Assembly (NCBI GenBank): GCA_963805085.1
Contig: CAWDTA010000004.1
Coordinates: forward strand, 410,233 to 474,232
DNA: 64,000 nucleotides
Direction of reading: 5' to 3'
DNA from: an uncultured Veillonellaceae bacterium
GTDB taxonomy: Bacteria; Bacillota; Negativicutes; JARBTT01
The number at the start of each line of letters is the position of its first letter. Positions within the stretch are counted from its first letter, which is position 1. The notes under the pieces are model-generated. The model was not told the origin of the DNA. It ran no database searches and saw nothing but the letters and a program-made list of their open reading frames with translations. Below, piece after piece: positions 36,762 through 54,733 of the stretch. The position numbers and the translations under genes are program-made.

Positions 36762-36812
36762 AAAAATGCCAAGTTGCCCAGTAAAATGAAACTTTACTGA
36801 TGCAACCTGGCA
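36762..36812 (-). terminator. Riboswitch expression-platform terminator
   Basis: TGCCAGGTTGC-ATCAGTAAAG..TTTTACTGG-GCAACTTGGCA-TTTTT on minus strand. Confidence 0.8.
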
Positions 36813-36880
36813 ATCATTGATAAAACTATCTTTAGACCCATGGCTTTGCGTCCTCATCTTTAGATAAGTTTGCCAAAATA
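36800..36880 (-). ncRNA. c-di-GMP-I (GEMM-I) riboswitch
   Basis: GGCAAAC-TTATC-TAAA-GATGA-GGACGCAAAGC-CATGGGTCTAA...ATGATTGCCAGGTTGC matches GEMM-I layout. Confidence 0.9.
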
Positions 36881-37216
36881 TTCAATTATTAATAATAAAT
36901 TTATTTTACTATACTTTGCTAGCGCTTGCAATAATTAGACAAAAAATAGCATAATTTTTCTAAAATCATGCTGCCCGTTAAGCCACTTATTTGTATTTGC
37001 TAAGAAAATATACAATTTTTTATCAAAATAAATAGAGCATGTACACTTCAAATTATTCTTGAAGTTTATACATGCTCTATTTATCAGTTGACTGGTGCTA
37101 TACTTGCTAATTCAACATACACTTAGACAGTGAGCTACTAGAAGATCTAATACCAACAACAGCTCGCTATCATCCGTAAGTTCATCGCTCCAGTATATGC
37201 CTGTTTGCTAGACGAA

Positions 37217-53267: not shown

Positions 53268-54069
53268 TTTTTATTGCCCTTCTTTATTTTTTTATTGTAG
53301 GATATATCCCCAAAAACTTAAATATGTAGATAAACAATTCATTTTTTCACAATGATAGTCGTACTCAGTTTCTGATTAAAATTCTCTTATTCAAGCTAAT
53401 TTTTTTATAATATAATCAACTTTTAAAAAGCCATCTAAGCAATAAATCCAAGTATGTTATAAAAATATATATTAAAATTATTTAATTCAACTTCACACAA
53501 AGTAATTTTAATAAAACATTGCTTATTTGTCAACTTTTAGCTATCTTCTTTGCACCGTATAAATTATTTTGAAATTTCAATTGTCGCAATAAAATGTAAT
53601 CTTGTATTTTTATCAAATGGAATGATTAAAGAAAAAAGGATTTCCGATGCCACGCTGGCTCGAAAATCCTTTTTCCGCTTTGTATTTCCTATACACGTCA
53701 TTATAGTTCAAGTACTATAAAATCTTAATCATTCACAAAAGATAAATATCTTTGCTCTCCTATGATCCTTCATCAAAAGCAAATCTTTTCTCTTGGTTTT
53801 ATAAAAGCATTCAATAAAAATTGCAATATACTTATAAATTGTGTATTAAAATTATTTAATTCAACATTCGTACTAAAATGATTTTAATATATTATTCCCT
53901 ATTTGTCAACTTCTAGCTATTTTCTACTATAAATCGCTAATTTTGATGATTTTTGCGCTTTGCGAAGATAGCAGCTGATTTTATCACCCGATATACACCT
54001 TAATAAGAAATAAAATTTATCCTAAAATAATAGACTATTGCATTTTTAGTTTTATGTAATATCAAAAAT

Positions 54070-54370
54070 TAAATGACCCGTAGAAGACTACTCTCCTACG
54101 GGTCATCCCGACACTTCCTTTTTAACTTGGTTAATTTTTGATTAAGCTTTCTCTTACGATCATCACCTAAACTCTTTGAAAGGAACAACCTCCCACCTAT
54201 CCAAGTTATGACGCTATCTATGCCGGTTTTTATGAACCTACCTGTCACTAGCGCTTTAGCTACATCAACTAATAAGGTGTGACTTTGGTAGCCCTTTTAG
54301 AGAAACCATCCGAATCTCCCCTATGGACCTTGATACCTGACCGGTATCTTCCGAACAGCCCCTTTTATTG
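54070..54370 (-). ncRNA. Putative stand-alone structured ncRNA (~300 nt)
   Basis: GC-richer island between a SigA promoter and a strong terminator; hairpins GATACC/GGTATC, GTCAC/GTGAC, TAGC/GCTA; no ORF of 60 aa or more. Confidence 0.7.
54073..54106 (-). terminator. Intrinsic terminator of the putative ncRNA
   Basis: ATGACCCGTAGGAGA-GTAG-TCTTCTACGGGTCAT followed by TTAATTTTT. Confidence 0.8.
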
Positions 54371-54375
54371 ATTTA

Positions 54376-54421
54376 AATATACCATAAACCTATTGATTAT
54401 TCAATACATTTTCAGAAAATT
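54376..54421 (-). promoter_or_regulatory. SigA promoter with adjacent CodY box
   Basis: TTGAAT-17-TATATT with TG extension; AATTTTCTGAAAATG (14/15 to AATTTTCWGAAAATT) at 54407-54421. Confidence 0.8.
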
Positions 54422-54505
54422 TTATATTTTCTATTATTATTTATATTAACATAATAAGCTTCATGCTAACGCTTATGAAAAGTGGTACAGCCAAAGTATG
54501 ATACG

Positions 54506-54733
54506 CTAGCTATCAAGTACTCGGTATGGACTTAGTTGTTCTAAATCCTTGAGGATATCCGCCCTGCCAAATTGATTCAAACAGTCCTTGATAGATTCCG
54601 GTGATTTCCCCATATTAACCAAAGTACCTTTTTTGTCTTTTAACAGATAAATATTAGAAAATTTTACAACGCTTTGATTTTCATCATTACTCAGCCATAA
54701 AATTTCTCCTGAATCTGCATTTACTTTGTTCAA
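54506..54733 (-). CDS. Small hypothetical protein
   Basis: AAGGGGG RBS before TTG; SigH-like CAGGAAAT...GCGAAT upstream. Confidence 0.6.
   Translation of the reverse strand: MNKVNADSGEILWLSNDENQSVVKFSNIYLLKDKKGTLVNMGKSPESIKDCLNQFGRADILKDLEQLSPYRVLDS

Follow-up and report, generated by a model that had tools for sequence, protein, structure and literature searches.

CodY, as known from Bacillus and Lactococcus, represses most of its targets, and sites that touch the -35 element are sites of repression. BsrF of Bacillus subtilis is a CodY-activated small RNA whose promoter is immediately preceded by CodY sites. A different RNA linked to nutrient limitation is 6S RNA, an abundant, trans-acting, protein-binding molecule that folds as a rod with a central bubble. 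RsaD of Staphylococcus aureus is much shorter than the ~305 nt of the RNA that we describe here. The available part of its published account presents it as a CodY-repressed small RNA that pairs with alsS mRNA (PMC9266662). The raiA motif (RF03072) appears in the sections available to us of a recent study as a stand-alone ncRNA of a few hundred nucleotides that occurs in Bacillota including Negativicutes and has several covarying helices, pseudoknots and many conserved nucleotides, with its biochemical function unsolved (PMC10861870). Our literature searches found nothing on comparable regulatory RNAs in Negativicutes.

In this study we characterize an RNA gene from a Negativicutes genome that shares single features with each of these systems. 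Like RsaD it is a stand-alone RNA gene, RsaD being described as under CodY and the present RNA having a CodY-type box, but the two have no sequence or Rfam relation, and the present RNA is pseudoknotted and multi-domain and lacks a conserved unpaired seed. There is no homology to BsrF either, which is instructive as a case where an upstream CodY site can activate as well as repress. With the raiA motif the RNA has in common that it is large, structured and stand-alone, with covarying helices and a pseudoknot. However, it belongs to a separate family (no RF03072 match at E<=10) and is rare, whereas raiA is widespread. 6S RNA may serve as a model for action through a fold, although the present RNA is branched and pseudoknotted and the genome encodes its own 6S RNA elsewhere (69.2 bits).

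The gene lies in a 64-kb stretch of DNA, the whole of which was analysed (the window). It occupies positions 54421..54064 of the minus strand, counted from the CodY-type box through the terminator, and is a real, independent structured RNA gene. A sequence-only reading of this DNA had described a complete minus-strand unit at 54070-54421 with a 14/15 CodY box, a TTGAAT-17-TATATT promoter, a GC-richer body and a terminator. All of these parts were confirmed; the unit itself stands, but its start had been placed slightly off, the element reaching about 54064. The palindromic box AATTTTCTGAAAATG (54407..54421, minus strand) agrees at 14 of 15 positions with the consensus AATTTTCWGAAAATT. It covers about -52 to -38 relative to the predicted start, and 2 nt separate its 3' edge from the -35 hexamer. 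The promoter scan identified a sigma-70-type promoter (54376..54404, minus strand) that is TG-extended and would start transcription near 54369, a position estimated from spacing. The predicted transcript is about 305 nt long (54369..54064, minus strand). The generic promoter scan of the window returned 13 sites against 10.0 expected, hence no enrichment. The promoter is present in 13/13 homologs, where TTG in the -35 element and ATGnTATA in the -10 element never vary and the spacer is 17 nt long.

At the other end, the terminator scan found an intrinsic terminator (54064..54108, minus strand) with a stem of 16-17 bp, a 4-nt loop and a U-run. Its hairpin (54108..54071) comprises 17 pairs including G-T and is followed by a T-run; one such structure was found against 0.4 expected. 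When the 13 homologs were aligned with MAFFT, the terminator helix showed compensatory change in 7/13 pairs, with 98.8% of cells paired. The body between promoter and terminator has a GC content of 42.2% vs 24.6% and 23.3% in the flanking spacers. A stretch of 308 nt folds with an energy of -94.5 kcal/mol, compared to -68.9 +/- 5.0 for shuffled sequences (z = -5.09), and the native stability was reached by 0/100 shuffles. The view that this is a stand-alone structured RNA gene was likewise upheld: it has its own promoter and terminator, and neither an ORF nor a neighbouring gene is conserved with it.

Homologs were collected in several ways. BLAST searches of whole genomes yielded full-length matches of 67-72% identity in 3 genomes, which belong to the same class but to two other families. 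A class-wide DNA search detected the RNA in 5/401 genomes, own genome counted, and one of the five (G200) carries two diverged copies. We built a covariance model, R1, from the 5' 139 nt; 5/151 class genomes were positive with it, which added a divergent member, G119, at 36.6 bits. A match in G208 (25.3 bits) consisted of a hairpin only and was dropped. In the family of G200, 3/20 genomes score with the covariance model, one of them with the hairpin only, and in the order of G048 the proportion is 1/3. No match at E<=1 was obtained by model search in five close relatives, including a genome of the same genus (84% complete), and none turned up when 150 further genomes of the phylum were searched with the model. 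Scanning 185,579 species genomes with a strict pattern gave 4 stretches in 3 assemblies, all already known; G048 was not returned though its sequence fits the pattern. A relaxed pattern retrieved 34 stretches from metagenome contigs, of which 11 score 111-132 bits with R1 (6 new sequences and 5 duplicates of known ones), while the other 23 fail the covariance model, as chance predicts.

The resulting set holds 13 distinct homolog sequences from six Negativicutes genomes and from metagenomes, with a mean column identity of 64%. The RNA is single-copy in its own genome. Among the genomes searched its distribution is rare and patchy, and its carriers are a few soil and water Negativicutes, mostly uncultured. 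The two copies in G200 lie on different contigs, L021 (C116) and L023 (C69), of an assembly with 9% contamination, and the L023 copy has a closer relative, L052, among the metagenome matches. The two copies could reflect an ancient duplication or a transfer, or the bin could be mixed.

RNAalifold, applied to 6 and then to 13 sequences, produced a consistent set of helices, and the homologs have in common about ten helices and one pseudoknot. In our model the minus-strand transcript begins with a three-way junction, continues with a long interrupted hairpin and ends in a multi-branch domain, the third of its domains, which the pseudoknot ties to the hairpin. In the 5' half, aligned with R1, 24/45 pairs show compensatory change and 96.2% of cells are paired, figures that are read with the alignment being fitted to the R1 model and hence leaning towards structure. 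The observed values were matched by 0/500 shuffles, and partners slid against each other were paired in 35-45% of cells.

The 5' three-way-junction domain (54299..54365) is closed by P1 (54363-54350 / 54314-54301, 93.6% paired), which encloses the hairpins P1a and P1b. P1 is long and mostly invariant, includes several G-U pairs and holds the invariant blocks CUGUUCG and CGGAU. Its pairing is supported by one-sided G-U/A-U changes together with one compensatory change; the helix barely varies, and its pairing is weakly tested. P1a (GAUACC/GGUAUC, 54348-54343 / 54337-54332) shows compensatory change in 4/6 pairs with 98.7% of cells paired, P1b (54327-54325 / 54321-54319) in 1/3 pairs. The extended hairpin that follows (54234..54294) is built from P2, P2a and P2b, with 96-99% of cells paired. 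P2 contains one bulge (54294-54287 / 54242-54234) and shows compensatory change in 8/8 pairs (96.2% paired), P2a (54283-54279 / 54248-54244) in 5/5 pairs (98.4% paired) and P2b (54272-54267 / 54261-54256) in 4/6 pairs (98.7% paired).

In the pseudoknot, GCGCUA (54254-54249) on the 3' side of the internal loop of P2 pairs with UAGCGU (54216-54211), located 33 nt downstream inside the P3 domain. Compensatory change affects 3/6 of its pairs and 100% of cells are paired. The figures for the pseudoknot and for the terminator come from the MAFFT alignment, which was fitted to no model, and in an unbiased scan of that alignment the pseudoknot was the second-strongest covarying helix. A scan for further covarying helices returned only those already in the model. 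For the 3' multi-branch domain (54108..54226) we used an alignment to a second model, R2. Here P3 (54226-54220 / 54114-54108) shows compensatory change in 5/7 pairs and P4 (54208-54201 / 54130-54123) in 3/8, each with about 96% of cells paired. The hairpin P4a (54194-54189 / 54183-54178) has one compensatory pair of 6 and 83% of cells paired. P4b (54170-54166 / 54146-54142) is tentative; it has compensatory change in 0/5 pairs and 67% of cells paired, and it stays weak even with a model-guided alignment.

Conservation within this fold is concentrated in the helices: 40 invariant nucleotides are paired vs 4 unpaired, the hairpin loops are variable and the joints are A-rich. No two adjacent unpaired positions are conserved at 90% or more, except positions 73-74, which are adjacent, unpaired and conserved, but able to extend P1. 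The sequence-only reading had named three stems. The GAUACC/GGUAUC stem, our P1a, is upheld by covariation, but the other two are not and give way to pairings with better support. The UAGC/GCUA stem is paired in 43/52 cells and lacks compensatory support, its place being taken by P2b and the pseudoknot; the GGUU/AACC stem is paired in only 30/52 cells, again without compensatory support. The collection of homologs and the analysis of covariation, which that reading had suggested, revealed strong compensatory covariation. Its suggested Rfam covariance-model scan was carried out as well and found no family at the locus, so that the likeness it had noted to Rfam Clostridiales-1 or a clostridial ncRNA was not borne out, neither at gathering score nor at E<=10.

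For this comparison all 4227 families of Rfam 15 were scanned, at gathering score over the window and at E<=10 on 53900-54600. No family matched the RNA locus at gathering score. At E<=10 the stretch 53900-54600 gave two noise matches only, both confined to the terminator hairpin and the 3' flank: rliA with 15.4 bits (gathering score 50) and MIR9481 with 14.7 bits (gathering score 130). We also considered a diverged copy of a housekeeping RNA, which is improbable. The genome has its 6S RNA, SRP RNA (84 bits), RNase P RNA (283.7 bits), tmRNA (181.7 bits) and raiA-motif RNA (197 bits) elsewhere, and none of these models, RF03072 for raiA included, matches the RNA locus, even at E<=10. The 64-kb window holds no tRNA or tmRNA genes. 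In our literature searches we found no description of the RNA, although supplementary tables of ncRNA surveys could still list it; the parts of Stav 2019, Brewer 2021 and Narunsky 2024 that were available to us give for Negativicutes only other motifs, or none. Hence the RNA represents a new family outside Rfam, of a known general kind, and a credible new RNA class.

The CodY-type box deserves separate consideration. No site in the 64-kb window other than AATTTTCTGAAAATG (54421..54407, minus strand) comes within one mismatch of the consensus; with at most two mismatches there are 3 sites vs 1.69 expected, and the window count alone is not significant. Across the 13 aligned upstream regions the box has the consensus AGAATTTTCAGAAAATA and ends 2-4 nt before the -35 element. 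At that position 10/13 homologs have at most two mismatches and 11/13 at most three, and a random 60-mer of the same composition contains a site with at most two mismatches in 0.3% of trials. The homologs are related, and the conservation of the box therefore counts as about four independent lineages, not ten. A convincing box is missing from G048, which has 4 mismatches and a different spacing, and from G119, which has 6 mismatches. Further upstream, the DNA is not conserved across homologs. The own genome encodes CodY (PF06018, 207 bits), and codY scores above cut-off in 5/5 other carrier genomes, so that all six carriers encode the regulator. The CodY box that had been noticed next to the promoter is thus borne out by its conservation across homologs and by codY in the carriers.

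Genome-wide, 10 CodY-type sites with at most one mismatch were found vs a composition estimate of ~3-6 by chance, a modest enrichment, and 5/10 of them are intergenic, the box of the RNA gene among them. Other intergenic boxes with one mismatch lie at C3:80313 and C5:89566, one upstream of an amino-acid permease and the other upstream of a PRD/HTH regulator that carries a PTS IIB domain, which would fit a canonical CodY regulon in this Negativicutes genome but is no proof of one. Another box is located upstream of a divergent pair formed by a 2Fe-2S ferredoxin-like gene and a gene without a Pfam family. A further one precedes hpf (S30AE) at C2:1867668; for S. aureus, the accessible portion of a published study reports hpf as CodY-controlled (PMC6256015). 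The raiA-motif RNA of this genome (C2:1863766-1863993, plus strand, 197 bits) lies ~3.7 kb upstream of this CodY-boxed hpf.

Given that homologs conserve the CodY-type box and that their genomes encode CodY, it is reasonable to suppose that the RNA responds to nutrients, as the sequence-only reading had proposed. With regard to the direction of control we lean towards repression, because CodY mostly represses and because sites touching the -35 element repress, while leaving activation a substantial chance. A site at about -45 could bring about activation instead. It might also be possible that the A/T-rich box serves as an UP element or as the site of another dimeric regulator.

Sequences of the RNA are present in RNA libraries. 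Seven contigs, each 91-242 nt long, all fall within 54085-54354; they come from four studies, with 4 metatranscriptome runs in total. The runs, labelled soil, freshwater or unspecified metagenome, were chosen because they hold the RNA sequence. One contig is 100% identical to the window and the others 87-98%, and most of them stem from relatives. In two small libraries, which comprise 36 and 103 million letters, the contig depths add up to about 30-38. Assembled contigs give no ends, strand or level, and bare flanks are no evidence. None of the contigs extends past the predicted transcript, as would be expected of a short discrete RNA, and what they establish is presence in RNA libraries, not the limits of a transcript.

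The reading that we favour, and hold to be somewhat probable, is an independent ncRNA gene of ~305 nt that is controlled by CodY, linked to starvation and acts in trans through its fold. According to this proposal the conserved, extended -10 promoter would drive the RNA, and the CodY-type operator abutting its -35 element would be occupied by CodY loaded with branched-chain amino acids and GTP, which would hinder RNA polymerase. When nutrients run low the RNA would then build up. It would act in trans by means of its fold, in all likelihood as a binder of a protein or small ligand, and neither a linear seed nor a peptide nor an effect in cis would play a part. Action in trans is suggested because the homologs have no downstream gene conserved among them, and action through the fold because conservation sits in the helices, with variable loops and without a conserved unpaired run. 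Regarding the partner, none of our results points to a particular protein or ligand.

The strongest competitor, which we nevertheless consider rather unlikely, is a small RNA that belongs to the CodY regulon and works by classical base pairing, being derepressed in starvation and pairing with ribosome-binding sites of mRNAs in the manner of S. aureus RsaD. A stand-alone gene with a CodY-type box, promoter and terminator would suit such an RNA, the published description of RsaD as CodY-repressed offers a precedent as far as its available text goes (PMC9266662), and in one clade the RNA gene adjoins ilvD. However, the family as a whole has no single-stranded seed, the loops being variable and the helices conserved, and ~305 nt with a pseudoknotted multi-domain fold is atypical of the class. 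The anatomy argues against a classical seed-pairing small RNA because no single-stranded stretch is conserved, although with 13 sequences there may be clade-specific seeds. A bolder version of the fold-based reading, which we regard as possible but doubtful, is a new class of compact, pseudoknotted large ncRNAs, switched on by CodY derepression in starvation. Such an RNA might serve as a specific scaffold or sequesterer of a protein, or as a metabolite sensor, through its invariant, G-U-rich P1 and its pseudoknot core. If this were true, raiA and OLE would be comparable in kind, and diderm Firmicutes would possess an RNA effector of starvation that acts downstream of CodY.

Other explanations were weighed as well. 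A cis-acting leader, a riboswitch or attenuator in which the terminator controls read-through into a downstream gene, could be imagined from the terminator that directly follows the structured domain, and in the G029/G008/M039 clade a gene for a tRNA-binding domain does lie ~95 nt downstream on the same strand. Yet the homologs have no downstream gene in common, and synteny is restricted to close relatives: in the clade of the window an aldo-keto reductase gene and a 75-aa ORF lie upstream and a CsgG-like lipoprotein gene 800 nt downstream, in the G029/G008 clade ilvD lies upstream and the tRNA-binding-domain gene downstream, and in G048 both neighbours, genes for an SNF2-type helicase (so named by its translation) and for an FMN reductase, lie on the strand opposite to the RNA, with the downstream gene converging on it. 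The window has its next same-strand gene only after ~800 nt, behind two promoter-like sites, and no alternative pairing with the terminator is conserved; control in cis is accordingly very improbable. No more credit is due to a small-protein gene or dual-function RNA based on the longest same-strand frame, 50 codons from a GTG start (54248..54096). It is this frame, and not a 30-codon TTG frame as had been thought, that is the longest, but the earlier judgement that no ORF is convincing holds across homologs. The frame is present in the window and in its nearest relative M055 only, is cut to 30 codons in M050 and is absent from 9/13 homologs, with G200a having only an ATG frame from a different start. 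No ORF of at least 18 codons is common to all 13 sequences, the family shows indels whose lengths are not multiples of three, and substitutions preserve base pairs. An AUG frame inside the terminator hairpin was also considered and set aside, being present in some clades only. It is slightly easier, though still improbable, to think of an RNA belonging to a mobile element or defence system (a transposon guide, retron or RNA antitoxin) or of a diverged housekeeping RNA. The rare and patchy occurrence (5/401 class genomes), the absence from the searched genome of the same genus and the two copies in one genome would agree with mobility. Against it, the RNA is single-copy in its own genome, its annotated neighbours are ordinary chromosomal genes with no reverse transcriptase, transposase or nuclease among them, and no match was found in the viral contigs, phage records and plasmid records searched; a housekeeping copy is countered by the 6S, SRP, RNase P, tmRNA and raiA RNAs encoded elsewhere in the genome. 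Judged from these comparisons, the RNA is probably not coding, not cis-acting and not mobile.

If the favoured reading of a fold-based, CodY-controlled RNA is true, CodY-linked control of RNAs would extend to Negativicutes. To our knowledge, few structured RNAs reach several hundred nucleotides and combine pseudoknots with many invariant positions, and new biochemistry has emerged from every one whose function was solved. The conserved operator of a well-understood nutrient sensor provides an unusual handle here, as it indicates the conditions in which the RNA should be sought and a way of perturbing it. Its significance is limited by a narrow and patchy distribution, by carriers that are mostly uncultured and by functional clues that derive from anatomy alone.

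Several features close to the RNA genes, or elsewhere in the window, are worth recording in their own right. The 75-aa ORF (54506-54733, minus strand) is located on the strand of the RNA, 134 nt upstream of it, belongs to no Pfam family and is kept only in the nearest metagenomic relative (L055 939-1154). The tRNA-binding-domain protein of the G029/G008/M039 clade (L010 1923-2366, also in L011) is a stand-alone PF01588 protein scoring 81 bits, and its gene is followed in that clade by acetyltransferase-like and endonuclease IV-like genes, both named from their translations. The only Rfam match in the window at gathering score is a c-di-GMP-I riboswitch at 36798-36884 (minus strand), whose aptamer scores 75.9 bits vs a gathering score of 35 and covers the full model. 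Between the terminator of the RNA and the CsgG-like lipoprotein gene there is an ORF-free spacer of 800 nt (53268-54069, 24.6% GC). Its minus strand contains two promoter-like sites (53909 and 53533), each matching at 11/12 positions, which suggests a long leader or a further unannotated feature.
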